Origin: Syntrophales bacterium
Lineage (GTDB): Bacteria > Desulfobacterota > Syntrophia > Syntrophales > UBA2210
DNA length: 64,000 bases
NCBI GenBank assembly: GCA_963664485.1
Contig: OY761459.1
Location: forward strand, 69,275-133,274
Direction: 5' to 3'
Below are positions 31,991-60,905 of this stretch, piece after piece (the first letter of the stretch is position 1; each line of letters begins with the position of its first letter). Position numbers and translations under genes: made by a program. The notes beneath the pieces are model-generated. The model ran no database searches. It saw only the letters and a list, made by a program, of their open reading frames with translations, and was not told the DNA's origin.

Positions 31991-32063
31991 TGTCATGCCG
32001 GCCCCAGACAAGCCTGCCCCGTACTCGATACGGGCCACCCGTCACCCCGGCGAAAGCCGGGGC
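31991..32063. repeat. Intergenic hairpin-repeat cluster (module AAGCCTGCCCCGTACTCGATACGGG plus CCCCGGCGAAAGCCGGGG hairpin)
   Basis: Same modules recur at 57761-57786 and 62498-62685. Confidence 0.6.
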
Positions 32064-33428: not shown

Positions 33429-35125
33429 ATGCATTTCAGACTGAACAGATTACCCGGCTATGGAGGAATAAAAGGGCCCCTTCTCCTGATCATAATGGAC
33501 GGTATCGGCCTGTACCGGGGGGAAAAGGAAGAGTACCCCGGAAACGCCCTCGATATGGCGAAGCCGCGAAATCTCTATTCCCTGATGGGAAACGAAAAGA
33601 TAGTAACCCGGCTCAAGGCACATGGAACGGCCGTAGGCATGCCCTCGGACAAAGACCAGGGAAACAGTGAAGTCGGGCATAATGCCATCGGGGCCGGCAG
33701 GATATTCGAGCAGGGATCCAAACTCGTAGATACCGCGATCAATAACGGCAGTATCTTCGAGGGAGATACATGGAAAAAAATAATTTCCAGCGCATTGACG
33801 AAAAAAACCGCTGTGCATTTAATAGGCCTCATATCGGACGGAAACGTTCACAGCAGCATATCACACCTCTTCGCGCTTATAGGCGAATGTGACAGGAGCG
33901 GCGTGGAAGAGGTTTATATACACGGCCTCCTGGACGGACGGGATGTGCCTCCGGTCAGCGCTCTACGCTACTTCGGCGAGCTGGAAGACTATCTCTGGTC
34001 GCTACGCGCGCAAGCCGTAAAATCAGGCGAAAAACGCCTGTATTTCGTCGCATCCGGAGGCGGCCGGATGGTAACCACGATGGATCGCTACGAAGCGGAC
34101 TGGTCTATCGTAGAGCGGGGCTATAACGCCCATACGCTTGGGAAAGGCCCTCTTTTCCCCGACAGTCTGACAGCAATCAGGAAACTGCGTGAAAAAGAGC
34201 TATCCGATGATCAATACCTCTCACACTGGGTAATACACGATCCCGGCAACCCCGGCAAACCACTCACACAATCATGGATGGAGACAGCGTGATACTGTTC
34301 AACTTCCGGGGCGACCGCGCGATCGAGATCAGCCGCGCGTTTGTCGAAGACGATTTCAAAGGATTTAAACGTGACTACCATCCCTCCGTAACATACGCCG
34401 GAATGCTCGAGTACGACGAAGACACCAGGATGCCGCCGGAATATCTCGTCTCACCCCCGGCCATCGATCGAACGGTGTCGGAATATCTCGCAAAAAACGG
34501 CGTTTCTCAATACGCCATAAGCGAGACTCAGAAATTCGGTCACGTCACATATTTCTGGAACGGGAACAATTCCGCAAAATTCGACGAAAAAACAGAAGAG
34601 TGGGTGGAGATCGAATCGGACCGCATACCGTTCGACCAGGCACCGGAAATGAAGGCCGCCGAAATTGCATCCCGGGCAATCGCCGCGATGCAATCCGGGA
34701 AATACAGATTCCTTCGTCTGAATTTTCCAAACGGGGATATGGTGGGACATACCGGATCGCTGCCGGCAACGGTGAAAGCCGTGGAAGCCGTCGACAGGGA
34801 ACTGGGCAGGTTGATCGAAGCAGCCGACAGACTGGGAGGCACGGTTATAGTGACCTCTGACCACGGGAACTGCGAACAGATGATAGCGGTCGACAAAAAG
34901 ACCGGCAAACCCGTAATGGAGGCAGGCGGAAAGTACAAACCGCAGACAAGCCACACACTGAATCCGGTCCCGTTCATTATCCATGGTCCCGACACCGGCC
35001 GCTACGAACTTGCCGATATACCGGAACCGGGACTCGGTAACATAGCCGCGACCATACTGCTGCTTCTCGGATATGAAAGGCCGGAAGACTACCTTGAACC
35101 ACTGATAAGGGTTCAAGGGGTCTAG
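33429..35125 (+). pseudogene. gpmI: 2,3-bisphosphoglycerate-independent phosphoglycerate mutase, split by a 1-nt frameshift near 34265
   Basis: ORF 33429..34292 has LLIIMDGIG and GNSEVGHNAIGAGR. ORF 34274..35125 continues with DGDSVILFNFRGDRA and TSDHGNCE. The join GKPL(H)TIMDGDS needs one extra base. Confidence 0.85.
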
Positions 35126-35349
35126 GGGTCTAGGGGTCTAGGGGTCTAAACATTCAAGGCCATGTCTATCTTGAATTGTGAGTTTTTAATTAAGGGAATT
35201 CAAAAATCGCTGTACCTGATCTAGGGGCCGAGGGGCCGAGGGGTCTAGGGGTCTAGGGGTCAAGGATGTATCGCCCTGGCAAAGATAGAAGCTTTCGTTG
35301 AAGTTTCATTAAACTCGAAGCTTTTCACTCGAACCCTCGACCCCTTGAA
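35112..35349. repeat. Palindromic intergenic element built from GGGG-N4 octamer repeats (G-quadruplex potential)
   Basis: GGGGTCTA x4 (35117-35148). GGGGCCGA x2, GGGGTCTA x2 and GGGGTCAA (35224-35263). Inverted ends TTCAAGGGGTC (35112-35122) and GACCCCTTGAA (35339-35349). Confidence 0.75.
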
Positions 35350-37899: not shown

Positions 37900-38290
37900 A
37901 TTTGTCTTCCGGAGTTTCTTCCTCGACGCTCTTTTCTTCCGGAGTTTCTTCCTCGGCACCCTTTTCTTCCGGAACCGTTTTCTCCCTTCCGGAGTTTCTT
38001 CCTCAACACCCTTGTCTTCCGGAGTTTCCGCCTTCGGCACCCTTTTCTTCCGGAGTTTCTCCTTCGGGGCACCCTTCTTCTTCCGGAGTTTCTTCTTCAA
38101 CACCCTTGTCTTCCGGAGTTTCTTCCTCGGCACCCTTGTCTTCCGGAGTTTCTTCCTTCAACACCCTTGTCTTCCGGAGTTTCTTCCTCGGCACCCTTGT
38201 CTTCCGGAGTTTCTCCTTCGACACCCTTGTCTTCCGGAGTTTCTTCCTCGGCACTCTTTTCTTCCGGAGTTTCACCCGGCATATCCTCTG
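37900..38290. repeat. 30-nt tandem repeat array (~13 units) covering the 3-prime end of the FeS oxidoreductase gene
   Basis: CTTCCGGAG anchors at 37906, 37936, 37966, 37986, 38016, 38047, 38080, 38110, 38140, 38171, 38201, 38231, 38261. Spacings are 30,30,20,30,31,33,30,30,31,30,30,30. Confidence 0.9.
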
Positions 38291-40454
38291 CCGGGGCAAC
38301 CGCCTCAGTGCTCTCTTCTTCCGGGATTTCTACGGAAGCTTTCTCGATATTCATGGCATCCCAGACTATTTCGGCTATATCGAGGGCTGCCATTTTCTCC
38401 TCCATCCCCCGGTCCTTGATACCGTCGGACATCATTGTCAGGCAGAACGGGCAGGCAACCGCTATCGTATCCGCTTTTACGGCTATAGCCTGATCCGCTC
38501 TCATATCATTGATTCTGTCGCCGATATCCTCCTCCATCCACATTCTTGCCCCGCCGGCACCACAACAGAAACTCTTATTGAGATTACCGGCCATCTCGGA
38601 CAGTCTCATGCCGGGAACGGAGCCGAGTATCTTCCTCGGCTGCTCATAGATATCATTGTATCTGCCGAGGAAACATGAATCATGATACGTAAACAAACCG
38701 CTTGCCGGTTTCTTCAATACCAGTTTGCCGCGGGCGATAAGATCAGCGATTATCTCCGTGTGATGATAGACCTCGAAATTGCCGCCGAAATGAGTGTAAT
38801 CCTTCTTGATAGTATTATATCCGTGCGGACAGGTACAGATGATCTTCTTCACGCCATATCCGTTCATGATGTCTATGTTCATCTGCATGAGGGTCTGCGA
38901 CAGATATTCGTTTCCACCCCTCATGGCGGAATCGCCGCAACAACTCTCTTCCCCGCCCAGGATACCGAAACTGACGCCGGCCTCCATCAGGAGTTTGGCA
39001 AAGGCAATCGCGACTTTTTTCCCCCTGTCGTCAAACGACCCGGAGCAACCTACGTAATAGAGATATTCCACATTCGAATCCTCAGCCAGTGTCTTGACGC
39101 CCAGCTCTTTCGCCCAGTCTCCTCTCGTGTGAGAACCGATTCCCCAGGGGTTGGAGTTGTTCTCCATGTTCCTGTAGGTCAACTGCAACTCCTGGGAGAA
39201 ATCCGCCTCCATCAGTACCTTGTACTGCCTCATGCCGATGATCATCGGAACATGCTCGTTAAATACAGGACAGACTTCCATACAGGCCATACAGTTTGTA
39301 CACGCCCATAACTCGTGCAGATCAATAACCTCGCCCACCATTATCTTTCCCGGGTCGGGGATTGCAGGCTGTCCACCCTCCCCGGCATTACGCTTCGCCG
39401 CCATCACGGCAGGCGCTCTCTCCAGCCAGTATTCCTTGATATCCTGGTGGAGCTTCTTCGGGGAGAGCGGTTTGCCAGACAGGTAAGCGGGACACACATC
39501 CTGACACCTTCCGCACTTCAGGCATGCGTCCGCGTTGAAAATCTGCTTCCAGGTAAAATCCTCGAGCTGCCCGACACCGAACGACTCGGCGGTCTCAAAG
39601 TCGGAAATCGGTTCAAGATACCCTGTCGGTTTCAACGATCTCATGTACTGGTTAGCCGGAGCGAGAAGAATGTGTATCAGCCTTGAATAGGGAATATAAG
39701 CGATAAAGCCGAAGGCCACAAACGCGTGTATCCACCAGGTCCATTTATGAAGAATTTTAACCGTATCGTAGCTTATACCGGTCAGGGGTTTCGAAAGGGC
39801 GTATCCGACAAACGACCAATTGCCCCATGAGTAACCATCCACATTTACGTTAACATACAGCCTGAACGCCTCGAGCAGAAATCCCGTTACGATAATACCG
39901 GCTATCAAGAGTAATCCGATCGCATTATCCGGAGTGTTATCCGATTTTCCCCGGTATTCCAGCCGTTCGGGTTTCTGGATGTATCTCCTCCACACCGCCA
40001 GCACAACCCCGGCGAGAACGGCCAGGCCGAACACCTCCATAACGAAAGAGAACCACAGATAGAATCCGCCGTTAAAAAAAGGAATAAGAAACGGAAGATG
40101 AAAGTGTGTGGCATCGAAGGCCGCCCCGAATATAAGGACAAAAAACCCGAAAAATATGAGGGCGTGCATAATGCCTGGATATCCGTCCTTGAATGTTCTT
40201 ACCTGCAGAAGGGAATTAAGGAGAAGGGATTTGATCCTTTCCGAAGGCTTATCGGTCCTGTTTTCCGGCAGGCCGATCGCCTTCCACATCTGCCAGCGTC
40301 GGTAAAAACCGTAGACACATATCGCTATCGCGATCCCGGCGAATATAAAAAGGATCAGTTCCGACGGGAAGGGGGCGTTCCAGAATATTTCTCTCCCTTC
40401 ATTACCTACAACGTATGCGCCTGCATCGTGTGCCATAATGCTTTTTACCTCCAT
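38097..40454 (-). CDS. Membrane-anchored FeS oxidoreductase (NarI/DsrM-like membrane domain, 2x[4Fe-4S], two CCG domains); candidate EtfAB:quinone oxidoreductase with acidic repeat tail
   Basis: N-terminal ~250 aa contain about 5-6 hydrophobic helices. Ferredoxin motifs CLKCGRCQDVCP and CTNCMACMEVCP; CCG-type motifs ESCCGDS and FCCGAGG. Lies directly downstream of etfBA on the same strand. The C-terminus as given depends on frame-shifting repeat units. Confidence 0.8.
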   Translation of the reverse strand: MEVKSIMAHDAGAYVVGNEGREIFWNAPFPSELILFIFAGIAIAICVYGFYRRWQMWKAIGLPENRTDKPSERIKSLLLNSLLQVRTFKDGYPGIMHALIFFGFFVLIFGAAFDATHFHLPFLIPFFNGGFYLWFSFVMEVFGLAVLAGVVLAVWRRYIQKPERLEYRGKSDNTPDNAIGLLLIAGIIVTGFLLEAFRLYVNVNVDGYSWGNWSFVGYALSKPLTGISYDTVKILHKWTWWIHAFVAFGFIAYIPYSRLIHILLAPANQYMRSLKPTGYLEPISDFETAESFGVGQLEDFTWKQIFNADACLKCGRCQDVCPAYLSGKPLSPKKLHQDIKEYWLERAPAVMAAKRNAGEGGQPAIPDPGKIMVGEVIDLHELWACTNCMACMEVCPVFNEHVPMIIGMRQYKVLMEADFSQELQLTYRNMENNSNPWGIGSHTRGDWAKELGVKTLAEDSNVEYLYYVGCSGSFDDRGKKVAIAFAKLLMEAGVSFGILGGEESCCGDSAMRGGNEYLSQTLMQMNIDIMNGYGVKKIICTCPHGYNTIKKDYTHFGGNFEVYHHTEIIADLIARGKLVLKKPASGLFTYHDSCFLGRYNDIYEQPRKILGSVPGMRLSEMAGNLNKSFCCGAGGARMWMEEDIGDRINDMRADQAIAVKADTIAVACPFCLTMMSDGIKDRGMEEKMAALDIAEIVWDAMNIEKASVEIPEEESTEAVAPAEDMPGETPEEKSAEEETPEDKGVEGETPEDKGAEEETPEDKGVEGRNSGRQGCRGRNSGRQGC

Positions 40455-50415: not shown

Positions 50416-51157
50416 AAATAGGGACACTCCCCTATTTTTTCGGCCGTCCTTTCTTCCCAACCAACAATTTCCGGGAAAGTAAGTTCTCCAGGCTTTTCAC
50501 AAAATCGACACTTCCCAAAGGGCGTCCCGTCGATGTCGCCCTTCGAATCTTATCATCCATCGCCGGATCCTGCCGAACCAGGAAACGCCCATAATCCGCC
50601 CGTTCGCTTGCGTCGAACCATAACGATGATTTTACCAGCTCGTCTTCCACACCCTCCACCGTTGCGCGGCAACTCGACCACGGATATGCCAGGGGATCCT
50701 TTACAATGCCGGCTTTAACCGGATTGATTTCGATGTATCGCATGACAGACCACAGGTATATGTCATCACTTACAATAGAGGAGTAAAACCGGTTCTGCCA
50801 CAATCGACCGCTGCGGTGATATTTTCGATTTACATACTGAGTATATATAAGATTTGTTCTGCCCACACAACGTGCGAGGGCATCCTCTTCCAGAGGTACG
50901 GCAAGCAGATGAACATGATTGCTCATCAGGCAATAGGACAAAATATTAACCCTGCACGAATCGCAGTAGTTTTTGAGCGTGGACTTGTAAAAGTTTCTGT
51001 CTTTGTCGTCAAAAAAGACATCTTCTCGATTGTTACCTCGCTGAGTAACATGATGAGGATAGCCGGGCAATGTAACGCGTGCTATTCTTGGCATGTGTCA
51101 CCTCTATACTCATTTATTTTTATTATCAACGTAAAAATGGGGGAGTGTCCCTATTTT
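50416..51157 (-). mobile_element. RAYT unit: REP-associated tyrosine transposase gene bracketed by inverted REP hairpins
   Basis: AAATAGGGACACTCCCCTATTTTTT (50416-50440) and its inverted copy AAAAATGGGGGAGTGTCCCTATTTT (51133-51157) flank the ORF. Confidence 0.8.
50432..51094 (-). CDS. IS200-like Y1 HUH transposase of the REP-associated (RAYT) type
   Basis: 220 aa; HHVTQRGNNREDVF, HUH motif CLMSNHVHLL, catalytic-Tyr region MRYIEINPVKAG. No adjacent tnpB-like gene. Confidence 0.85.
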   Translation of the reverse strand: MPRIARVTLPGYPHHVTQRGNNREDVFFDDKDRNFYKSTLKNYCDSCRVNILSYCLMSNHVHLLAVPLEEDALARCVGRTNLIYTQYVNRKYHRSGRLWQNRFYSSIVSDDIYLWSVMRYIEINPVKAGIVKDPLAYPWSSCRATVEGVEDELVKSSLWFDASERADYGRFLVRQDPAMDDKIRRATSTGRPLGSVDFVKSLENLLSRKLLVGKKGRPKK

Positions 51158-51944
51158 CGGCGCGTTGAGGGAAGTCCGTAATCAGGCCGGCCGCGCCCGC
51201 TTTTGCGAACCTTAGCATTTCGTCCGCTTCATTAACGGTAAACAGGTTAATTGCTATCCCCTTCTCTCTCATTGCCTGAATCTGTGCTTCGTCAATAAGC
51301 GTGCTGCGGAGATTATATGTCGCGAACTCCGGGTTCTCCCAGTCCAGCGACCGGATTTCAGCATAACTGACCAGAGCCTGCACCTCAAGAGAGGGATTCC
51401 GAACCCGGATATCACGGAGCCACTCGTGATTAAACGAGGAAACAACGACATGCCCACATCCGATCCCGGCATCGTCTATCGCCTTCAGTACACGTTCGAC
51501 CAGGGGGAAATCACCCAGAGGTGTGGACAGCCTTTTCAGTTCCAGATTGACACGGAAACCGGCATCCCTGGTAAAATGAAGGCCTTCCGCCAGCGTGGGT
51601 ATCCGCTCGCCCTTGTAACCCGAAAGTTCTTCCCCGGTTACCGCCTCCGCCGCAATCATGCCGAAGGGGTCGTCCCTGACGAACCAGGAGCCCGCATCCA
51701 GCACGCGGATCTCATCCAGTGTAAACATCGCGACGCGCCATGGATCGCGGCCGGGAAAACGATCCCTGACATCGGTGGTACGAACCAGGGAATCGTCGTG
51801 AAACAGTATCAGCTCCCCGTCACGCGTCACCATGACATCCGTCTCCCAGAGATCGGCACCGACCGCCAGCGCCTTGCGGGCCGCCGCCAGCGTGTTCTCT
51901 GGAGCGAGGCTTCGAGCCCCCCTGTGAGCTATGATAAGTGCCAT
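51126..51944 (-). CDS. ugpQ: Cytoplasmic glycerophosphodiester phosphodiesterase
   Basis: MALIIAHRGARSLAPENTLAA..WETDV..HD; no signal peptide. The last 10 codons (ENRDTPPFLR) are encoded by the REP at 51133-51157. Confidence 0.82.
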   Translation of the reverse strand: MALIIAHRGARSLAPENTLAAARKALAVGADLWETDVMVTRDGELILFHDDSLVRTTDVRDRFPGRDPWRVAMFTLDEIRVLDAGSWFVRDDPFGMIAAEAVTGEELSGYKGERIPTLAEGLHFTRDAGFRVNLELKRLSTPLGDFPLVERVLKAIDDAGIGCGHVVVSSFNHEWLRDIRVRNPSLEVQALVSYAEIRSLDWENPEFATYNLRSTLIDEAQIQAMREKGIAINLFTVNEADEMLRFAKAGAAGLITDFPQRAENRDTPPFLR

Positions 51945-51950
51945 AATTAC

Positions 51951-54900
51951 TTATAACATCTTCTTGATGGCGCCCAGGTAAGGACCCGAACGATCCAGGT
52001 AGAACGACAACGCCCCGGAAAAGTTTCTCCCCACAATACCGTCGACAAACAACTGGCTTATCTCCCTGTTCCGTTCGAGAACCGACTGGACACGAACGAA
52101 TATCCGGCGTTCTTCGGCAGACATTCCCTTCATAATAGCGCGCAAAGCGACCACGGCACGGGGCTGGTACATCCAGAAGTACAACAGGTCGAGTGCATTG
52201 ATAATCACTATTTTTTCCAGGTCGCGCGCCTCGGCCTGTATGGTAAGAATGAAATTCTCCGGTGATTCAAGCATCTCGCATACGTCGGATTCGGGGAAAA
52301 GCATCTCCATGCGGTCATATGTATCGAATACCTGCCCGATCTTACTTCGATAATCCAGCATGCGGGTACGTATATTCTGGTAACGGTCGGAAAGCCCCTC
52401 GATAAAACCGGCCACACAGTCGGATGCGCCTTTGGAAATCACGGCCGCCCATTTCTGGAGAACGGCATTCACATCCACGATACCGTACGCGGAGAGCATG
52501 CTTCCCGCCGCCATGTTGAAGAGAACGGCGATGGGAATAGACAGGATGGTCCGGAAAAAGTTTCCTAACACAGCGCCCCGGGACAATCCGCGAAAGGCAT
52601 TATGCGTAGAGATATACAGACCGTTTGCGATAGCTATCACGGTATACATCATGACGGGACTGGTAGCGGCCGTAACACCGAACATCCTGTCGAGGAGAAG
52701 CGTTTTGACCAGGTAATCGAGCAGGGGAACGGAAAATCCCGTAAAGAGAAGAGAATCCGTCAGGCGATCCCAACTGACATAATCGTTCCACTTCAACAGC
52801 GGCGAGCGCCGGATACCGCCGCCGCCCATGACGGATTGCAGTATGTTGCGCGCCCCGGTGATGCCGAACCATATGAATGCTCCGAACCATGCCAGCAGCC
52901 ACCAGTCCTTGGTAAGGTAAAACGTAAAAAACGCCGGCACGAATCCGATCAGCACCTTCAGCCAGTTCTTCAACCCGCTGTTGAGATATTCCCACGATAT
53001 CTTCCGGGGGTTCTCCGACAGATCGGGAGATCCGAGATAGCGCCTATTGTGGAGTTCCTCGTCGAACCCGCCGAGCGTGACGATATTGCCCTCCGTCTCC
53101 GTACCCATGTGCGTGGAAAATCTGTTGATTTCCCATTCGTTCCGCCTTTTTTTCCCTACAAGGCGCAGCCCCGGGATACAACAGGCGATCCGGTAAAAGG
53201 CATTCACCAGCCTGCTCGAACTGCTGTGCGGAATGTAGCTGGTACGCAGATAAACACCCGTATTGACAGGAATCGTAAGGCGTGAAGCAGGCGGCGATTT
53301 CTTTATCTCCCTGCGCGCCCTGATCGGAAGCGTATCCGTGATAACAAGCCCCATCCCGTAGAGATGGTGTGAACGCCCGGTGGAATCACTGCCGATGCGG
53401 CTCTTTAAAAGCATTCCCTGATAATAAGACCGGAACGTCGATATATCATGCAGGATCTTTGTGAGCTTGTCGACTCTCCCGGGATCTTTGGGACGCAGGT
53501 GCCGGATGGATTCCCGTATAATACGTTTCAACGCTATGATATTGTCTTCGTTTATCGCACCCTGTAACTCGCTGATTTCCACATTATGCGGCTCCCTGCC
53601 GGTCACATAATCCTTGAGATTGAATATCTCCAGGTGAGTTATCATCCCCTTGCAGTCATAGAGCAGTTCGATCACATCTTCGACACCCAGATTGCCCAGG
53701 GCAAGCGTAATGCTGTAACCGGCATTCAGATATCCCAGCCGCCTGAGGAGCTCGAACGGCGACAGCGTCAGCAACCCGGGGACATCCTCACCGTCGCGCG
53801 GTATAGCGGGATCCGGCACGGAAGGATTGCGACACGGACGAAGATACCCGTCGACAATAGCCTCCGAATCCAGCCTGTTCAGCGCATCCGTAATACCGGT
53901 TATCCGCCGGCGCTCTTCATCCTCCGCCCCGGCATATCGCACCCTGAGACCGGCAACATAATCCTTCATAACCGGCAGCATCTTTGCGTGCGCGTACTCG
54001 GCCAGATGCAGCAGGGACGCCTGACCGACCCCCACAAAAGACATGAACTCACTGCGATCCAGGAGCGGCGGGGAAAACCCGTAACGCTCTTCTATCGCGC
54101 AGCGGTGCCTGTTATTAAACTCGTCGAGAACCGCCATTATGTAACGCCGCTGGTACTCGGAAACTTTCCGGCCCTCGGCCATGAAAGACTGGACAGGCTC
54201 TTCCTTCAGAAAATTAAGGTAATCCTGCGTATCCAGGAGACCCCGCGGCGCCCAGATAAACAGGACATACTTGTCGTGAAACCTCGCGGAGAACTCGACG
54301 CCGACCCTTACCCTGATACCCATGATCTCGGCCGCCTTAAGGAGTTCCTCGGCGACGTCCGCCTTCACATTATTATAATAAATCACCTTGAGCCTTCGGA
54401 TCCCCTTGATCCAGGCATCCATTATCAGATGCGTCGGAGATTTTCTGCCCTTGGTGTTGACATCGTGGACATGATCGTCGGTCGCGACCTGGTTCCATTC
54501 CTCCGGCATCTCCAGCAGGTGATAACGCCGCAATTGCTCCCGCACGATACGCGGTTTCCCCGAAGCCGTGATACGGAAATCATGCGCGAGTTCGAGCTGC
54601 CGGCGATAGTCTCCGCGGGACTGGACCAGCTTCTTCATGATCTGCAGGAGAACCCGCGCGGTATTCTTGCGAAGAAAACTCTGGGCGCTGTAAAGCACCT
54701 CTTCGCGAAGAGAACGCAGGGCACCCAGGCGATCCTCCGCCTCGCCCATCTCCAGAGAATTAAGCAGATGAATTACCGCGTAAGCGACGCGCAACTCCTT
54801 CGACGCCGCCATCTCCTTGATCCCGTGAGGGTGCAGATACGGATTCAGAAGAGTCTTGAGATACTCCCTCGACTTGTCCCTGTTGAGAACCTCATTGACA

Positions 54901-54965
54901 ATAACCAGCAGGTCATGATCCTGCTTGTCAAAAAGTATCCTCGAAGCACCGCTTTCCATCATCAT
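51951..54965 (-). CDS. Large uncharacterised protein: ~660-aa soluble N-terminal region plus a C-terminal multi-pass membrane domain
   Basis: Long ORF with no frame breaks. Hydrophobic helices include WLKVLIGFVPAFFTFYL, WWLLAWFGAFIWFGITG, SPVMMYTVIAIANGLYI and FFRTILSIPIAVLFNMAAG. I recognise no family signature. The track start at 54998 lies inside a MITE, so the MMMESG start (54965) is preferred. Confidence 0.6.
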   Translation of the reverse strand: MMMESGASRILFDKQDHDLLVIVNEVLNRDKSREYLKTLLNPYLHPHGIKEMAASKELRVAYAVIHLLNSLEMGEAEDRLGALRSLREEVLYSAQSFLRKNTARVLLQIMKKLVQSRGDYRRQLELAHDFRITASGKPRIVREQLRRYHLLEMPEEWNQVATDDHVHDVNTKGRKSPTHLIMDAWIKGIRRLKVIYYNNVKADVAEELLKAAEIMGIRVRVGVEFSARFHDKYVLFIWAPRGLLDTQDYLNFLKEEPVQSFMAEGRKVSEYQRRYIMAVLDEFNNRHRCAIEERYGFSPPLLDRSEFMSFVGVGQASLLHLAEYAHAKMLPVMKDYVAGLRVRYAGAEDEERRRITGITDALNRLDSEAIVDGYLRPCRNPSVPDPAIPRDGEDVPGLLTLSPFELLRRLGYLNAGYSITLALGNLGVEDVIELLYDCKGMITHLEIFNLKDYVTGREPHNVEISELQGAINEDNIIALKRIIRESIRHLRPKDPGRVDKLTKILHDISTFRSYYQGMLLKSRIGSDSTGRSHHLYGMGLVITDTLPIRARREIKKSPPASRLTIPVNTGVYLRTSYIPHSSSSRLVNAFYRIACCIPGLRLVGKKRRNEWEINRFSTHMGTETEGNIVTLGGFDEELHNRRYLGSPDLSENPRKISWEYLNSGLKNWLKVLIGFVPAFFTFYLTKDWWLLAWFGAFIWFGITGARNILQSVMGGGGIRRSPLLKWNDYVSWDRLTDSLLFTGFSVPLLDYLVKTLLLDRMFGVTAATSPVMMYTVIAIANGLYISTHNAFRGLSRGAVLGNFFRTILSIPIAVLFNMAAGSMLSAYGIVDVNAVLQKWAAVISKGASDCVAGFIEGLSDRYQNIRTRMLDYRSKIGQVFDTYDRMEMLFPESDVCEMLESPENFILTIQAEARDLEKIVIINALDLLYFWMYQPRAVVALRAIMKGMSAEERRIFVRVQSVLERNREISQLFVDGIVGRNFSGALSFYLDRSGPYLGAIKKML

Positions 54966-54971
54966 ATCCTT

Positions 54972-55135
54972 AAATAGGGACACTCCCCTATTTTTCATTA
55001 GCCACCCGTCTCGTTATTCCAACTCTCTTTTTGTCATTCCGGTGAAAACCGGAATCCAGTTCTTTTTACCTTCTCATCAAACACCAAAAATTCAACATTA
55101 AAAATTGGTAAAAAAAATGGGGGAGTGTCCCTATT
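54972..55135. mobile_element. REPIN/MITE-like element, copy 1 (REP forward, ~115-nt spacer, REP inverted)
   Basis: REP units at 54972-54995 and 55110-55135. The spacer contains the hairpin TCATTCCGGTGAAAACCGGAATCCAG. Near-identical to copies at 59342 and 60737. Confidence 0.85.
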
Positions 55136-57680
55136 AAAAGAATTTTTCCAGGAGCTTTTGCGCGCCTTTCTGTATGTAGTAGGATGAAAGCGCGTTGAGC
55201 ACATATTCGGTATCGAGGAAGGGTATCGGCTTCCTGATCGACCCTTTCAGGGTAATCGGCAGCACCATGTTGCCCTGATTGTTAAGCAGCGCCCTGAGAA
55301 TATCCGCCTTTTCAACCAGTTGCAGGGAATGGCGTTTCGACAGGATCACCGTCCCCTTCAGATCGAGCGTTTTAGCCGCCCGGTCCACGGTACCTTTCAG
55401 GGACGCCACCGAGTCGGTCGCCTTGCTGGTCTGTATGTTTCTCAGGTTCAGCGACTCTACCCGTATAATATTGTCTTTCATGTCGAATGTTCCGTCCAGG
55501 GAATCGAAACGCGTCGATTCATGCCGGGCCACCTCGCCGCCCTGATAGCTGAGGAACCGGCCGATGCCTTCCAGCCCGAAGAGACTGTCCAGGACACTCT
55601 CAACCAGGTTGAAATTCTTCCATTCTCCCTTCGCGAGCAGCACGGACCCCCTGGCGCCGAGCTTCGGCTGCCTGGCCGCTCCTCCCTCCGCGTGCAGTTT
55701 CCCCGAAAGGGTTCCTGCAAAAGTATCCTTATGTTCGGTCAGGGTATCCAGCACCGTACCCACGTCGACCCCCTGTATCGACGGATCAAAAGCCCATCCC
55801 TTTTCCCGGATATCGTAGAACCCCGTGCCCTGTATACCGCCGTCGAATGCTTTGACGTTAAGAGAATCGATGGTTACCCGGCCGGGTCTGTAGCTGAAAT
55901 CCGACTTCGCGGCAGCGAAGGGAATCGCCGCGACAGTGCCTTTACCGATGGCAAGCGTTCCCCGTCCCAGCAGATCTTTTTTACGTGTTCCGCTGATGTT
56001 CAGTTTCATCCCTTCGAGAAGGCATGTCTTCGGCGGATTCGCGGCATCTTTCGCCTGGGGCAGTTGGAATCCGATCCGGCCGGACTCCGCACGCACGTTC
56101 AGAGACAGATTGTCCGGCGGCCCTTTCGCGGAAGCGTTCAGAGCTACCGCACCCTTGAGCGCGTACGCTTCCATAGCGGGAATCAGCGCGCCCCAGCCAT
56201 CCAGTTCCGTCCCGCCTGTTTCCAGGGTAACGTCTACGGACGGTCCCGGCTTTCCCGTTCTCACCTTTCCCGCGGCGTGCGCGGCCAGGTTATGCAGCCT
56301 GCAGTCGATTTTTTCGAACGAGAGATCCCTGCCCTTCTTCATCCCCGCTATATCGAGCGAAAGCGCAGTTCCCGGGGGTTTTCTGAACGCGTTCCCGTAC
56401 GCGATGTTCATGGCATCGGTGTTAATACCGGCATCGATCTTAAAATCTGAAACGCTTCCCGACGAAGCGAACCGCAGGGAGGCCGGACCATCAATGACAA
56501 GCGCCTCCGGCATGGCGCCGATGTATGGGGCAAGCAGGGCGATTAACGTTTTGGGCATCAGTTTTTCGGACGTGCCCGTGATATTCCACTTCGGGCCGGC
56601 AAGAAACCCATCGACTGTTCCGGAGAGGTTTATACTGTTTTCATTTACCGTAATGACCGCCGGCTCTACCGAAAGATGTTGTTTCGCCCAGGCAAGGGAT
56701 AAATTCGCCTTGAGACCGGCGTCGATTTTCCCCGACGGCACGGGCGCTTTCTTTTCAGCTTTTTCCTGAAAAACGAGATCACGCACGGATATCACAGTAT
56801 CCGCGGTCAGGATGTCGCCCAGCGATCCCTTTCCCTTTATATCAGCGGTAACGGCACCCGATTGGACCGCTGCCGGCAGAAGAGCGGATATCCGGGCAAG
56901 AGGGAATGATTTGACGCCCAGATCAATCGAGATTTGCATGTTTTGCACATTAACCGGAGCGCCCAGCGGCCCCAGAGTTCCCTCTATGGAAAAATTTTCC
57001 GATCCGCTTTCGAAAAGATCCGCACTCAGATCGACGGAGACAGGCCGATCGAAAGAAACATCTTCCATGGTGAGATCCAGGGCGTCAACAACCAGGTTGC
57101 CGGCGCCGGGCAGCAGCATCTCGTCGCGGTACAGAACCCTCCCATCCACAATCTGAAGCTCCCTCACGCTGAGAGGCGGTGCCGCGGATTTTGAAGCTCC
57201 GGTATCGGAGGCATCCCCGGCCGCCCAGGCGACGGAAGGCCCTATATGACGAGTTGACGGTGTTCCGGAGGTGTTTCCCTTCTTCTTCAGGGAAGCGAGA
57301 ATATCGTCGAAACTGAATTCCCCGGCGGCATTGCGCGCCACGGAAATTACGGGCCGCTTCAGAACAATCTTCTTGACCTTGATCTCTTTCTTCAGCAGCG
57401 GAAAGAATTCGACCTGCACCTGAAGGCTGTCGAGCGAGACGAAATCGGCGGAAGAAAACCGGGGATTATCCGCAACCCGCAACCCTTGAAGCTCCGCGCC
57501 CAGACCGGACAATATCGTCAGCTCGATATGCGCGAAATCGACATCACGATCCAGATAAGGTTTTATCTGAGCCAGGATCGTTCCCTTGTAACGGTCGAGA
57601 TTAACAAAGAAAGGCGCGAGCATAACGAGAACCAGACAGATAACCACAACAACGATAACACCTGCGATAATCTTCTTCAT
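55134..57680 (-). CDS. AsmA-family outer-membrane biogenesis/lipid-transport protein
   Basis: MKKIIAGVIVVVVICLVLVMLAPFFVNLDRYKG (N-terminal anchor), then a long beta-rich region typical of AsmA-like proteins. The track start MGECPYF lies inside a REP and is rejected. Confidence 0.78.
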   Translation of the reverse strand: MKKIIAGVIVVVVICLVLVMLAPFFVNLDRYKGTILAQIKPYLDRDVDFAHIELTILSGLGAELQGLRVADNPRFSSADFVSLDSLQVQVEFFPLLKKEIKVKKIVLKRPVISVARNAAGEFSFDDILASLKKKGNTSGTPSTRHIGPSVAWAAGDASDTGASKSAAPPLSVRELQIVDGRVLYRDEMLLPGAGNLVVDALDLTMEDVSFDRPVSVDLSADLFESGSENFSIEGTLGPLGAPVNVQNMQISIDLGVKSFPLARISALLPAAVQSGAVTADIKGKGSLGDILTADTVISVRDLVFQEKAEKKAPVPSGKIDAGLKANLSLAWAKQHLSVEPAVITVNENSINLSGTVDGFLAGPKWNITGTSEKLMPKTLIALLAPYIGAMPEALVIDGPASLRFASSGSVSDFKIDAGINTDAMNIAYGNAFRKPPGTALSLDIAGMKKGRDLSFEKIDCRLHNLAAHAAGKVRTGKPGPSVDVTLETGGTELDGWGALIPAMEAYALKGAVALNASAKGPPDNLSLNVRAESGRIGFQLPQAKDAANPPKTCLLEGMKLNISGTRKKDLLGRGTLAIGKGTVAAIPFAAAKSDFSYRPGRVTIDSLNVKAFDGGIQGTGFYDIREKGWAFDPSIQGVDVGTVLDTLTEHKDTFAGTLSGKLHAEGGAARQPKLGARGSVLLAKGEWKNFNLVESVLDSLFGLEGIGRFLSYQGGEVARHESTRFDSLDGTFDMKDNIIRVESLNLRNIQTSKATDSVASLKGTVDRAAKTLDLKGTVILSKRHSLQLVEKADILRALLNNQGNMVLPITLKGSIRKPIPFLDTEYVLNALSSYYIQKGAQKLLEKFF

Positions 57681-57692
57681 CCTTACACCCCT

Positions 57693-57893
57693 AAAATAGG
57701 GACACTCCCCCATTTTTCACTATTTCTCATTAAAATAGGGACACTCCCCCATTTTTTCCTAAGCCTGCCCCGCACTTGATAAGGGGTTATTCCATACCGA
57801 TAGAGATCCGGCTTCCGCTGGAATGATAAAGAAACAGGATTCCGGTTTTCACCGGAATGACTAAGTAAGAAAAAATAGGGGAGTGTCCCTATT
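57693..57893. mobile_element. Rearranged REPIN/MITE-like element, copy 2 (two tandem forward REPs, different spacer, one inverted REP)
   Basis: REP at 57693-57717, 57732-57757 (same orientation) and 57870-57893 (inverted). The spacer carries AAGCCTGCCCCGCACTTGATAAGGGG and the CCGG hairpin in flipped orientation. Confidence 0.8.
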
Positions 57894-59088
57894 ATTTTTT
57901 GAGTTTTTTGCGCAGGAGATCGCCGAGTGTTCCCATTGAGGAATGTGTCTTTCCAAGATATTCGCGATAGTCGTCGTCTCCGGGCGCATCCGGTTCGCCT
58001 TTTCCCCTTGCTTCGCGTTCCGGCACCAGCGTTATACGTCGTTTCTCGAGATCGATACCCTGTACGGTCACTTCCACCGTCTGTCCCTGTACCAGTACTT
58101 CACTCGGATGGTTAAGCCGCTTTCCACCGCCCAGTTTTGATATATGAATCAGTCCGTCCACGCCGCCCTCGAGGGTTATGAAAGCTCCGAACTTTGTCAG
58201 CCGCGCGACCGTTCCGGTATGGGAAGACCCAGCGGGATATTTAGCTTCAACATTATCCCAGGGATCGGGGAGCGTTGCCTTACGGCTGAGAGACACACGG
58301 TTCTTCTCCCAGTCCAGTTTCAGAATGACCGTTTCCAGTTCCTGGCCGATGGAGAGCACCTCGCTAACATCCTCAACCCTGGTCCATCCGATCTCCGAGA
58401 TGGGAAGCAATCCCTGCATTCCGCCGATATCTACAAACGCTCCGAAATCCTGGATCGAAGCCACAGTCCCTTTGATCTTCATCCCCTCGCGCAATTCTTC
58501 CTTCAGCTCCTCGAGCCTGACACGCATTTCCGCTTCCCGGATCGCCCTGTTGGACAGGATTACGTTACGGCCCTTTTCGCCATATTCCGTAATGATAAAG
58601 AGCATCCGCTGCCCCACATATTCGGCGGTAGCTCCCTGCCCTCGAAGCCCCATCTGGGAATACGGGCAAAATGCCGCAGTGTCTCCGGCTATCTTGACCT
58701 GAAATCCCCCTTTTATTTCCTTTTCGATCACCCCTTCGACCGGGATATCGTTACGCATCGCCTCTTCAAGAAAGTTCAATCCGGTTGCGCCCCTGGTAAT
58801 GCGGGTGGTAAACATCAACTCATCGTTTCGCGACGACAGGAAATAGGCCATGATCGTATCGCCGACCTTCACGTTGAGTTCACCGCTTGCATCGAGCATT
58901 TCCTTTTTATCAAGGATACCCTCGCTTTTTCCGCCGAGGTCCAGAAAAATCCAGTCCGCACCGATATCGACCACCCTGGCTTCCATACGCTGGCCAGGCT
59001 CCAGCCATCCGGGTCCGGTAACGCTTTCATTCAGGAGTTCTTCGAACGAGACTTTATTGTTGTTTTCTTCGACAGTCATATCACTCAT
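57892..59088 (-). CDS. S1 RNA-binding-domain protein (four S1 repeats, ribosomal protein S1-like)
   Basis: 398 aa with repeated S1 signatures (GxxVxGxVxxIxxxGAFVDIGG, GLIHISK). Confidence 0.8.
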   Translation of the reverse strand: MSDMTVEENNNKVSFEELLNESVTGPGWLEPGQRMEARVVDIGADWIFLDLGGKSEGILDKKEMLDASGELNVKVGDTIMAYFLSSRNDELMFTTRITRGATGLNFLEEAMRNDIPVEGVIEKEIKGGFQVKIAGDTAAFCPYSQMGLRGQGATAEYVGQRMLFIITEYGEKGRNVILSNRAIREAEMRVRLEELKEELREGMKIKGTVASIQDFGAFVDIGGMQGLLPISEIGWTRVEDVSEVLSIGQELETVILKLDWEKNRVSLSRKATLPDPWDNVEAKYPAGSSHTGTVARLTKFGAFITLEGGVDGLIHISKLGGGKRLNHPSEVLVQGQTVEVTVQGIDLEKRRITLVPEREARGKGEPDAPGDDDYREYLGKTHSSMGTLGDLLRKKLKK

Positions 59089-59230
59089 CCTACCTCATCA
59101 CTTTTTTAAACCGTGACTTTCTACAAACATGCTAATACTAATTCTTTTAAAAACATAAGGCAACCATATTTTCCCCGCCTCCGGATCGGTTTCCTCGAAC
59201 GTACACCTGCGGCCACAAACCATCCGGGTC

Positions 59231-59268
59231 AAAAAACAAAAAGGGCAACCGGATTTAAACGGTTGCCC
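59231..59268 (-). terminator. Rho-independent terminator downstream of the ATPase gene and MITE copy 3
   Basis: Stem GGGCAACCG/CGGTTGCCC, followed on the minus strand by TTTTTGTTTTTT. Confidence 0.55.
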
Positions 59269-59341
59269 CACGCGGAAAAAATTCGCGAGCAAGCTCGCTC
59301 CTATTCACTTTTCAAACCTTCAGTCTTCAGCCTTACACCCT

Positions 59342-59507
59342 AAAAATAGGGACACTCCCCCATTTTTCATTAGCCACCCGTCCCGTTATTCCAACTCTCT
59401 TTTTGTCATTCCGGTGAGAACCGGAATCCAGTCTTTTTGCCTTCTCATCAAACACCAAAAATTCAACATTAAAAATTGGTAAAAAAATAGGGGAGTGTCC
59501 CTATTTT
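59342..59507. mobile_element. REPIN/MITE-like element, copy 3
   Basis: REP units at 59342-59367 and 59481-59507; spacer is the same as in copies 1 and 4. Confidence 0.85.
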
Positions 59508-60657
59508 CCCCGCATCACGCCAACCTACAACGTTCACACCTTTATGCTGATAATTTTCTGTTCCACCGTAGATCAGCGTCGGATTGATCGCCGCATCGCC
59601 CGCCAGGGCCATCCACCTGTCCAGACCGGAGAAAAAATGACCGGTAACGGTCCTACCGGATTTGATCTCAACAGGGGTAATCCGGTCCACCGTGTTCAAT
59701 CAGAATATCCACCTCGACACCATTGCTGTCGCGCCAGAAATGAATGTTAGGACGCTCGCCCCTGTTGAGGAATAATTTCATCAATTCTGCGACTACAAAG
59801 GTTTCAAAAATGTTTCCCCTGAGAGGGTGGGTTTCCATCTGTTCGGGCGTCTGTATGCCCAGCAGCCAGGATACGAGGCCAACATCATAAAAATAGAGCT
59901 TGGGGGCCTTGACCAACCTCTTGTTAAAGTTCACATGATGCGGGCGAAGCTGGAACAGAATGTAGCTGGCCTCCAGCACCGATATCCAGGCCTTAACTGT
60001 ATTGTGGGAAATACCGCATTCCGTGGCAAGAGATGAATAGTTCAGCAGTTGCCCCGTACGTCCGGCGCAAAGACGCACAAAGCGCTGAAAGGCCTCCAGT
60101 TCCTGCACCTTGAGAACCTGCCGGACATCGCGCTCCAGGTACGCCGTTACATAAGCGCCAAACCATGCCCGTACAGGGACATCGCGATCATAAAGCGGAG
60201 GATAGCCGCCGGTATACAGCATCTGGTCAATATTTTGTGGTTGCTTAGGAGACTTTGCAAGTTCCTCCAGCGAAAAAGGAAGCAACTCCACAAAAGCGGT
60301 TCTTCCAGCCAGCGACTGAGTGATGCCGGACATAAGTCCAAACTGCCGGGAACCGGTCAAGACAAAAAGCCCCATGCGTCCATCGGCATCGATCAGAGTC
60401 TGTAGATAAGAAAGGATTTCGGGGCAGCGCTGTACCTCGTCCAGAACAGCGCCATCGGGAAAGCGTTTCAGAAAAGAGCGGGGGTCCTCCCGGGCCATCA
60501 GCCGCGCATCCGGGTCCTCCAGCGACACATAAGGCTTGTCAGGGAACACGATCTTCGCGAGAGTAGTCTTGCCTGACTGACGCGGCCCGTTAATGGTCAC
60601 GACGGGAAAACCCCTCAGCAGGGAGTGAATTGTACTTTCGGCTTTACGTTGTATCAT
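59469..60657 (-). pseudogene. AAA-family ATPase with DUF4143-like C-terminal region, frameshifted near 59684
   Basis: MIQRKAESTIHSLLRGFPVVTINGPRQSGKTTLAK (Walker A). The first ORF ends ..DILIEHGGPDYPC, and ORF 59469..59699 continues VDRITPVEIKSGRTV. Removing one C gives IEHGGRITPVEIKSG. The last 12 codons read into MITE copy 3. Confidence 0.75.
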
Positions 60658-60736
60658 GAACAATATGCTATTCAGATTTATGTATATTGTCAATCATTTT
60701 GTCAATCTGCATAATCACGCAACCCTTCAGCCTTCT

Positions 60737-60905
60737 AAAAATAGGGACACTCCCCCATTTTTCATTAGCCACCCGTCTCGTTATTCCGACTCTCTTTTTG
60801 TCATTCCGGTGAAAACCGGAATCCAGTCTTTTTGCCTTCTCATCAAACACCAAAAATTTAACATTAAAAATTGGTAAAAAAAATGGGGGAGTGTCCCTAT
60901 TTTTG
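60737..60905. mobile_element. REPIN/MITE-like element, copy 4
   Basis: REP units at 60737-60762 and 60876-60905; spacer as in copies 1 and 3. Confidence 0.85.

Follow-up and report, generated by a model that had tools for sequence, protein, structure and literature searches.

The window analysed here, a 64,000-nucleotide (nt) stretch of contig OY761459.1 from a Syntrophales bacterium, carries between 47.7 and 64 kb a row of genes that all lie on the minus strand, in the order DAO/GlpA-like protein, Y1 transposase, GDPD, a protein of 1004 amino acids (aa) without a family, AsmA, an S1-domain protein, an AAA_14/DUF4143 ATPase, a glycosyltransferase and an epimerase. The gaps between these genes hold a local population of a short palindrome of the kind known as repetitive extragenic palindromes (REPs); two copies flank the Y1 transposase gene, which encodes a REP-associated tyrosine transposase (RAYT), and eight or nine of the 11 copies make up four inverted-repeat elements, E1 to E4. 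They are arranged as follows.

50416-50440, plus strand: REP, T variant, forming the whole gap between the RAYT and DAO genes and holding the TAG stop of the RAYT gene, with the ribosome-binding site (RBS) of the next gene directly after it
50432-51094, minus strand: RAYT-like Y1/HUH transposase gene, 220 aa, Pfam Y1_Tnp 2e-16
51133-51157, minus strand: REP, C variant, upstream of the RAYT gene, in the 3' end of the GDPD reading frame
54972-55135: E1, REP / A-type spacer / inverted REP, between the AsmA gene and the gene of the 1004-aa protein
57693-57893: E2, three REPs around a B-type spacer, between the S1 and AsmA genes
57693-57717 (plus), 57732-57756 (plus), 57870-57896 (minus): the E2 REPs, two direct and one inverted
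59342-59507: E3, REP / A-type spacer / inverted REP, downstream of the truncated DUF4143 ATPase gene
60737-60905: E4, REP / A-type spacer / inverted REP, upstream of the DUF4143 gene

A search of both strands of the window for the REP core TAGGGACACTCCCCYAT, allowing up to three mismatches, returned 11 matches, every one exact (50419+, 51137-, 54975+, 55117-, 57697+, 57736+, 57875-, 59347+, 59487-, 60742+ and 60883-) and all confined to 50,419-60,899; chance would give 0.21, and none of 100 shuffled sequences gave 11. The other 53 kb of the window contained no REP at this threshold, and the additional matches of a five-mismatch search were all poor and non-palindromic. The pattern search therefore agrees with the initial annotation, which had counted 11 REPs in 10.5 kb (50.4-60.9 kb) and none elsewhere in the window. 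Counting the A and T runs on either side, the unit is about 25 nt long (AAAATAGGGACACTCCCCYATTTTT) and has the form of a "double-foot" palindrome, AAATAG-GGACACTCCC-CTATTT. A single REP is an imperfect palindrome, the RAYT/DAO copy folding to a 9-bp stem of -9.6 kcal/mol, and the foot ATAG...CTAT is found in all 11 copies, the canonical 5' GT[AG]G tetranucleotide in none. Two variants carry T or C at the Y position (..CCCCTA.. and ..CCCCCA..), and the 11 matches confirmed that both are mixed between the arms of single elements; a fixed alternation of the Y/Z type was rejected, because the variant base differs between orthologous arms and obeys no pairing rule.

Trimmed to the REP ends, E1, E3 and E4 measure 163, 161 and 162 nt around a spacer of about 117 nt and differ pairwise by four to five substitutions and one or two single-base indels. 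They are indeed the near-identical REP/spacer/inverted-REP units first described (161-163 nt, 96-97% alike), and 57693-57893 is, as was also proposed, a rearranged relative, with three REPs and a different spacer. The doublet arms are 26-30 nt long and 90-100% complementary, those of E4 being perfectly complementary over 26 nt, and the whole unit folds strongly, at -65.5 kcal/mol as RNA (z = -6.5) and -37.2 as DNA (z = -8.1), because the REP arms pair with each other. The statement that elements occupy every intergenic gap is correct for 51.1-60.9 kb, where the sole REP-free gene junction is one of 6 nt at 51944/51951. An Rfam scan of 49-64 kb (E <= 1) returned only a chance miRNA match of 27 bits against a gathering score of 150, so that no known RNA family is represented, and a 61-aa translation across E4 found no match among 5.8 billion proteins.

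The transposase scores 82.5 bits with the NCBIfam model REP_Tyr_transpos (NF047646; cut-off 80) and 21.6 with the IS200 model (cut-off 55). Its HUH motif is HVH at residues 60-62 (NHVH), followed by WQ, YIEINP at 120-125 and a conserved C-terminal tail; the HUH motif, the catalytic Tyr in Y---NP and the score above cut-off place it in the RAYT/TnpAREP family. With a profile of 26 homologues the top PDB match was Escherichia coli TnpAREP (4ER8, E = 9e-5), ahead of the IS608 and IS200 transposases; phmmer of the sequence itself against the PDB gave no match, and Pfam found neither a helix-turn-helix nor any other domain in the C-terminal 105 residues, even at E <= 10. Together with the inverted flanking REPs, the NCBIfam score, the motifs and the 4ER8 match bear out the suggestion that the neighbouring gene is a RAYT. 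Assigned by motifs and length against Table 1 of PMC6006769, without a phylogeny, it appears to fit subclass 2.1 (Group 1-like), and not the Group 2 or 3 RAYTs of REP/REPIN systems. A promoter-like match lies at 51122-51151 on the minus strand (-35 GGGACA inside the REP, -10 GATAAT, 9 of 12 positions), and the REP upstream of the RAYT gene could be part of that gene's own promoter.

The spacers are modular. They contain two further hairpin repeats, HP2 and HP3, which are also found in a REP-free intergenic sequence further along the window.

55033-55059, plus strand: HP2 module GTCATTCCGGTGAAAACCGGAATCCAG, in E1
59405-59431 (plus), 60800-60826 (plus), 57835-57861 (minus): other copies of HP2
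57760-57786, plus strand: HP3 module AAGCCTGCCCCGCACTTGATAAGGGG, in E2
62542-62568 and 32009-32042: other copies of HP3
62500-62735, plus strand: REP-free intergenic mosaic, homologous to parts of the A-type and B-type spacers

The mosaic comprises three copies of HP2 in the intergenic region 62488-62713 (at 62508, 62613 and 62651), the one HP3 at 62542-62568 and an AT-rich tail. The 74 nt of HP2 and AT-rich tail in the A-type spacer align at about 80% to REP-free 62651-62724, and HP2 and HP3 lie adjacent at 62500-62575, as modules of the E2 spacer, which consists of HP3 (in the form AAGCCTGCCCCGYACTTGATAMGGG), a degenerate HP2 and an inverted HP2. Alignment to this region at 62.5 kb upholds the earlier proposal that the spacer is a composite of two repeat families, though with the REPs there are three in all. 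The description of the spacer as structured does not hold: folded alone it gave z = +0.2 and -1.2 on the two strands relative to shuffled sequence, and the only robust fold within it is the 8-bp hairpin HP2 (GTCATTCCGG-TGAAAA-CCGGAATCCAG). A structured spacer or small RNA was rejected, the spacer fold being no better than that of shuffled sequence, and inspection of the AT-rich tail by eye disclosed no convincing IHF site.

Copies of the same palindrome recur at orthologous and unrelated loci in relatives, which are numbered here with the prefix L. The nearest relative (L001-L006 and L021-L025, including GCA_002327865.1 and GCA_002402655.1) has a RAYT 95% identical in aa sequence, about 96.5% nt identity over coding regions and the same gene order, with REPs at all four orthologous element sites and around the RAYT gene. 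A frame of REP, 720 nt and REP encloses the orthologous RAYT in L001 (95% aa identity), L014 (83%) and L016 (77%), and the same frame surrounds an 85%-identical RAYT between GGDEF and TM2 genes in L018-L020. The metagenome-assembled genome (MAG) AUK149, labelled Syntrophobacterales and with a RAYT of 83% identity, carries at its S1/AsmA junction, orthologous to E2, a doublet of 81 nt whose spacer is 31 nt long, and a second one directly upstream of its RAYT gene; further 81-nt doublets lie beside a CapD-like gene (L007) and between DUF4143 paralogues (L009, MAG AUK125). These five doublets, at five sites in MAGs AUK149 and AUK125, are 94-98% identical and share the 31-nt spacer. The 77% lineage, L016, has a REP variant (..CACTTCCC..) that closes one extra base pair, doublets with 47-156-nt spacing at the corresponding junctions and two additional genes, ECH and GDH, each bracketed by REPs. 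L026-L028 (72% AsmA identity) have a 72-nt-spaced doublet after AsmA, no REP before it, and AbiEii in place of S1 as the upstream gene. The doublets at orthologous junctions in L014, L016 and L027 have short or unrelated spacers; since these are the more distant relatives, the long HP2 spacer is the derived state. On other metagenome contigs, single REPs or doublets stand beside genes of unrelated kinds; in L012, for instance, the neighbours are an epimerase gene and a MazF-type pair.

Three further observations concern these relatives. L010 encodes, at 980-2010, another RAYT (39% identical) amid palindromes of its own, GGGGACAGACCCGAGGTC.GTCCCC and AAAAGGGGACAGATTTATTTT, with exact GGGGWSAS, and one REP of the window's type lies at 321-343, 700 nt from that gene. 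Another palindromic repeat, GTCATTTCGA...AGAAATCTTG / CAAGATTTCTC...TCGAAATGAC, is intergenic in a sister MAG (L007 400-520 and L014 4620-4720), and intergenic mosaics of multiple hairpin families appear to be general in this group. The AsmA and RAYT junctions (L016 3748-4536 and 8706-9917; L026-L028) are hot spots for accessory genes that differ by lineage, namely ECH, GDH, AbiEi/AbiEii, ParE/Phd and GIY-YIG, several of them REP-bracketed.

Cassette replacement between close relatives is seen at the E1 site. Flanking genes are identical in kind and REPs stand at matching places in both genomes, and the cassette differs exactly between the REPs, the window having an A-type spacer where each of five independent assemblies of the 95% relative shows an inverted B-type one. 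No substitution separates window E1 from the relative's E3 in 161 aligned bases, and the only differences are two homopolymer indels, whereas the true orthologues, window E3 and the relative's E3, differ by five substitutions; at 3.5% divergence about 5.6 differences would be expected in 161 nt, and by our arithmetic zero has a chance of about 0.003. The relative's B-type cassette at E1 is, by eye, about 91% identical to that genome's own E2 cassette, and because the identity is no higher than this the B-type is taken as the older state at E1. Most simply, E1 would have been overwritten by an A-type unit on the window's branch, once the two genomes had separated. The swapped tract takes in the variable base of the left REP, outside which, on this side, about 16 nt of homology remain. 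At E2 the relative has a 71-nt, HP2-containing segment between REPs 2 and 3 that is not in the window. The initial annotation had named, as grounds for its own refutation, the same elements at all orthologous sites in relatives together with confinement to this locus, the signs of a local duplication without mobility; half of this applies here, since the nearest relative has REPs at four of four sites.

The flanks of the elements are also informative. Comparison of the flanks of all copies disclosed no target-site duplication at any of them, which fits HUH/Y1 enzymes, yet provides no handle for defining the ends of the elements. Beside E3 and E4 stand copies of part of the AsmA gene.

59324-59341: flank of E3 that copies the RBS and start region of the AsmA gene (compare 57674-57692)
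60722-60736: a shorter version of the same copy, beside E4

Between 57674-57722, where the AsmA start adjoins E2, and 59324-59372 the match is 92%. Two copies, E3 and E4, carry about 18 nt of the AsmA start region, E4 in the shorter version, which points to a local duplication that went beyond the element. In L027 the AsmA leader is present without any REP, which identifies it as gene sequence and not part of the element; at least E3 and E4 therefore arose by events that took non-element DNA along, either local duplication or imprecise (one-ended) copying. Precise transposition explains them less well than segmental duplication or an imprecise copying process.

Three side observations belong here. 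In the 95% relative an insertion sequence cuts E4 beside HP2 (L001 1-140; also L002, L004, L022 and L024), and all contigs of this relative begin at E4 inside the C-terminus of a DDE (rve-like) transposase gene, which is why its assemblies break there. The window's AAA_14/DUF4143 gene (59510-60693, minus strand) has a premature stop at 59668 that leaves 341 aa, against 393 aa in its 98%-identical counterpart in L001, and the truncation may reflect a frameshift, a pseudogene or a sequencing error. AAA_14/DUF4143 genes recur between REP doublets (L009 1-2732; the window at 59342-60905, between E4 and E3; L014 1-460) and may travel together with them.

The REPs are closely tied to gene ends. On either strand a REP starts with TAG, and at many junctions the gene upstream ends, in frame, on this TAG.

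RAYT, all lineages: REP TAG as stop codon
DUF4143, L001: the same
S1, L014: the same
ECH and GDH, L016: the same
AsmA, L027: the same
Three DUF4143-paralogue genes, L009: the same

In the window the S1 and AsmA genes have TAA directly before the TAG of the REP, and the RBS of the next gene follows directly after the REP. The REPs fit a terminator-like pattern on both strands, 35 such sites being found in the region against 14.5 expected, and the hairpin and the A and T runs beside it resemble a bidirectional terminator or an RNA-stabilising structure, so that a role at the RNA level may be suspected. REP termini that supply TAG stop codons are known for GTAG REPs (PMC3733652). Beside E4, a 188-aa open reading frame without a family (60897-61463, minus strand) ends at the TAG of the E4 REP and overlaps the 3' end of the glycosyltransferase-4 gene (61252-62487) by 211 nt; either a frameshift at the gene end or a wrongly called reading frame may lie behind it.

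Several known systems resemble this locus. The initial annotation held that the long spacer differs from what is usually described, which was overstated: the GII REPINs (REP doublets forming hairpins) of Pseudomonas fluorescens have a 110-bp spacing (PMC3116915), the bacterial interspersed mosaic elements (BIMEs) of E. coli have defined linker motifs and mosaic linkers (PMC2817692; PMC3333891), and the REPs of Marinomonas are concentrated near tnpAREP (PMC8266576). For REP clustering close to the gene, for long spacers and for stop codons supplied by REPs there are earlier published examples.

Among the closest known systems are the TIRYT transposases and their TIRtrons, whose genes are flanked by GGGGWSAS repeats belonging to moderately abundant families, in some organisms in dimers or clusters (PMC3733652). 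Subclass 2.1 is equated with Group 1 of Bertels and with TIRYT (PMC6006769; PMC3733652). The window's RAYT shares with it the length of 220 aa, NHVH, WQ, YIE[LI]NP and the C-terminal tail (subclass 2.1 row of Table 1, PMC6006769), and its gene is accompanied by inverted repeats of the GGGGWSAS type, in moderate abundance, in dimers and clusters, one of which extends over the gene's 3' end; in reverse complement the REP is TAGGGGAGTGTCCCTA, and its inner GGGGAGTG fits GGGGWSAS at 7 of 8 positions. Unlike in TIRtrons, the repeat beside the gene here is a good palindrome in its own right and builds long composite doublets. Surveys disagree on REPs in this class: Quentin et al. 2018 found none for subclass 2.1 (PMC6006769), while flanking 16-mers of Group 1 RAYTs number about 12 genome copies per replicon (PMC5581495). 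Since a cognate palindrome is evident here, the locus is a clear positive case for a class whose association with REPs is disputed.

REPIN-RAYT systems (PMC3116915) have in common with this locus inverted REPs with a spacer that form a hairpin, a single RAYT flanked by the same REPs, a RAYT locus syntenic across lineages, which points to vertical inheritance, and a doublet with a conserved spacer in several copies. In the window the inverted REP doublet with its spacer is predicted to form a hairpin, and the RAYT gene is flanked by the same REP, as it also is in L001, L014, L016 and L018. REPINs, however, number hundreds of dispersed copies and go with Group 2 or 3 RAYTs and the GT[AG]G tag, whereas here 11 copies lie in one 10.5-kb cluster, with an ATAG tag, a Group-1-like protein and a spacer drawn from other repeat families. 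With the BIMEs and REPtron of E. coli (PMC3333891, PMC6006769, PMC2817692) the locus shares alternating REP orientation, defined and recurrent linker motifs, mixed subtypes and doublets beside tnpAREP; the BIME linkers are short dedicated motifs, in contrast to the 105-117 nt of independently occurring hairpin repeats found here. In the REPtrons Ma and Mb of Marinomonas sp. MWYL1 (PMC8266576) REPs likewise lie close to tnpAREP and not genome-wide, but clustering there is read as recent arrival; the cluster here persists to 77% RAYT identity and, since gene position and local cluster are both kept down to that level, is old. The foot of the window's REP also resembles the "double foot" arrangement of subclass 2.4 REPs.

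A further likeness concerns the spacers. Neisseria intergenic mosaic elements (NIMEs) are mosaics of RS units bounded by dRS3 repeats, a short inverted repeat bracketing exchangeable modules, and the pattern of HP2 (ATTCCGG-N6-CCGGAAT) resembles that of dRS3 (ATTCCC-N8-GGGAAT); the sequences and the host phylum differ, and we know of no link between NIMEs and a Y1 transposase. Particular to the present locus are the uncultured host, Syntrophales/Syntrophobacterales-like by the names of its database relatives, a double-foot REP with the ATAG tag, an enzyme of the Group-1/2.1-like kind, a local cluster that has persisted over deep divergence, which argues against recent arrival, and two further repeat families nested in the doublets.

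It is proposed that the locus is a REPtron/TIRtron with cognate double-foot REPs, composite doublets and mostly local copying, a reading in which we have moderate confidence. One RAYT-like Y1 (HUH) gene sits within a conserved cluster of glycerol-phosphate genes, accompanied by a local set of what would be its cognate palindrome. Most REPs are paired in inverted orientation as doublets of the REPIN/BIME type, whose 26-30-nt arms could pair in single-stranded DNA or in RNA, and the doublet, arms and spacer together, would be the copied unit, as suggested by the five 81-nt doublets of AUK149 and AUK125 and the three A-type units here. In the window's lineage the spacer may have been taken over by cassettes of HP2 and HP3, a second and independent repeat population that would have settled in doublet spacers, giving composites of 161-200 nt. 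Copies would spread chiefly locally and REP-bounded sites would be overwritten by other cassettes, the likeliest agent being the neighbouring transposase, cutting and rejoining single-stranded DNA at REPs. Once in place, the elements form part of the gene boundaries through their stop codons, RBS adjacency and hairpins. The anatomy of the elements, the identity of the RAYT, the modular spacer, the copies at several sites and the cassette replacement between close relatives are all directly observed.

Cleavage and strand transfer in vitro are established for TnpAREP of E. coli and other hosts (PMC3333891, PMC8266576), and it is from the analogy with these enzymes and with IS200/IS605 TnpA, as well as from the precise REP-bounded swap at E1, that we infer catalysis by the RAYT; the mobilisation in trans that the initial annotation put forward is likewise putative, and the enzyme may prefer to act near its own gene. 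That the REPs are the cognate substrates of the neighbouring Y1 enzyme, and the doublet with its contents the unit copied or exchanged, we consider fairly probable.

A number of points weigh against this proposal. The motifs of the RAYT match subclass 2.1, a class without REPs in PMC6006769, DNA activity of Group 1 / subclass 2.1 enzymes is undocumented in the literature cited here, and the tag is ATAG in place of the canonical GT[AG]G. The large dispersed REP population that is the hallmark of classical REPINs is not apparent and may be absent: beside the 11 copies within 10.5 kb, 53 kb of the window are REP-free, and scans for the exact REP 23-mer returned only three stretches in GTDB representative genomes and four in JGI metagenomes. 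Copies at unrelated loci do occur in related MAGs. Among the relatives compared, no orthologous site with the same flanking genes was found empty, and the 95% relative is occupied at all four. The long A-type unit was found only in this locus (three copies in the window, two in the relative), and E3 and E4 carry the AsmA start region outside the REP.

Much of this could be accommodated if segmental duplication at the locus, along with recombination of the RecA type or gene conversion acting on the REP arms, had built the array, the RAYT having been domesticated for another role and the REPs being passive substrates. Such a history would account for the RBS and start region of AsmA beside the REPs of E3 and E4, for the confinement of all long-unit copies to 6 kb, for the filled sites in the nearest relative and for gene content that varies exactly at REP junctions (ECH and GDH in L016; DUF4143 shifted in L014). 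It does not explain why the same REP and 81-nt doublet stand at unrelated loci in sister MAGs or why the REP/gene/REP frame is kept around the RAYT in a different genomic context (L018). The E1 swap, too, includes the variable base of the left REP and leaves only the 16 nt or so of homology noted above, a length that is short for RecA-dependent exchange. We regard this explanation as unlikely, though the best placed of the alternatives.

The elements might instead be gene-end signals, that is, bidirectional terminators, RNA stabilisers or translation-coupling sequences, kept similar by selection and not by copying. All genes here are co-directional, the REPs sit exactly at stop codons and immediately before RBSs, and their hairpins with A and T runs are terminator-like on both strands, with the excess of such sites given above. 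Function alone, however, offers no account of 25-nt identity across sites, of a 117-nt spacer 96-97% alike in three copies or of the REP/transposase/REP arrangement, and E3 is followed by a separate canonical terminator (59269-59242). As a sole cause such signalling is improbable; as a secondary, co-opted role it is compatible with the proposed REPtron/TIRtron.

REP doublets might also serve as boundaries of exchangeable cassettes for an enzyme of the subclass 2.1 type, their contents being excised or overwritten, in which case the locus would be an old, locally confined shuffling zone reminiscent of integrons. Bearing on this are the E1 swap, bounded exactly at REPs, and the accessory genes bracketed by doublets in the window, L016 and L009. 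This is a speculative notion to which we attach little probability, and just as little attaches to its extension, under which the shuffled contents would include repeat mosaics and possibly accessory genes, such as the AAA_14/DUF4143 ATPases, ECH, GDH and toxin-antitoxin pairs. An actual integron attC array was rejected: the Pfam families of the neighbouring genes include no integrase, and the REP ends are AATAGGG/CCCTATT, not RYYYAAC/GTTRRRY.

Finally, classical miniature inverted-repeat transposable elements (MITEs), internally deleted DDE-type insertion sequences, are brought to mind by the perfect 26-nt terminal inverted repeats, the length of 160-200 nt and the DDE-type insertion sequence beside E4 in the relative, but are very improbable, as no copy has a target-site duplication, the arms match the flanks of the Y1 transposase gene and not of a DDE gene, single REPs also occur alone, and the relative's insertion sequence interrupts the element without sharing ends with it.

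Two other repeats were observed in the window: two blocks of an 8-nt tandem repeat (AGGGGTCT / AGGGGCCG) at 35100-35277, with four to five copies each and about 110 nt apart, and repeats with a period of about 30 nt (CTTCCGGAGTTTCTTCCTCGGCACCCTTGT) at 37906-38295, probably a repetitive coding region.

For annotation, the elements account for the breaking of short-read assemblies of these uncultured Syntrophales-like bacteria at this locus and for several genes that end in the same TAG. The four lineages, with 77-95% RAYT identity and the same neighbourhood, form a comparable series in which doublets change their spacer, gain a repeat family and, between near-identical genomes, are overwritten. 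The RAYT class represented here, for which one survey reported no REPs, is the largest of the RAYT groups and one without a demonstrated substrate, and the obvious cognate palindrome at this locus offers substrates for biochemical work. If the doublets do act as boundaries of shuffled cassettes, this would give a function to a large class of RAYTs that is without a known substrate.

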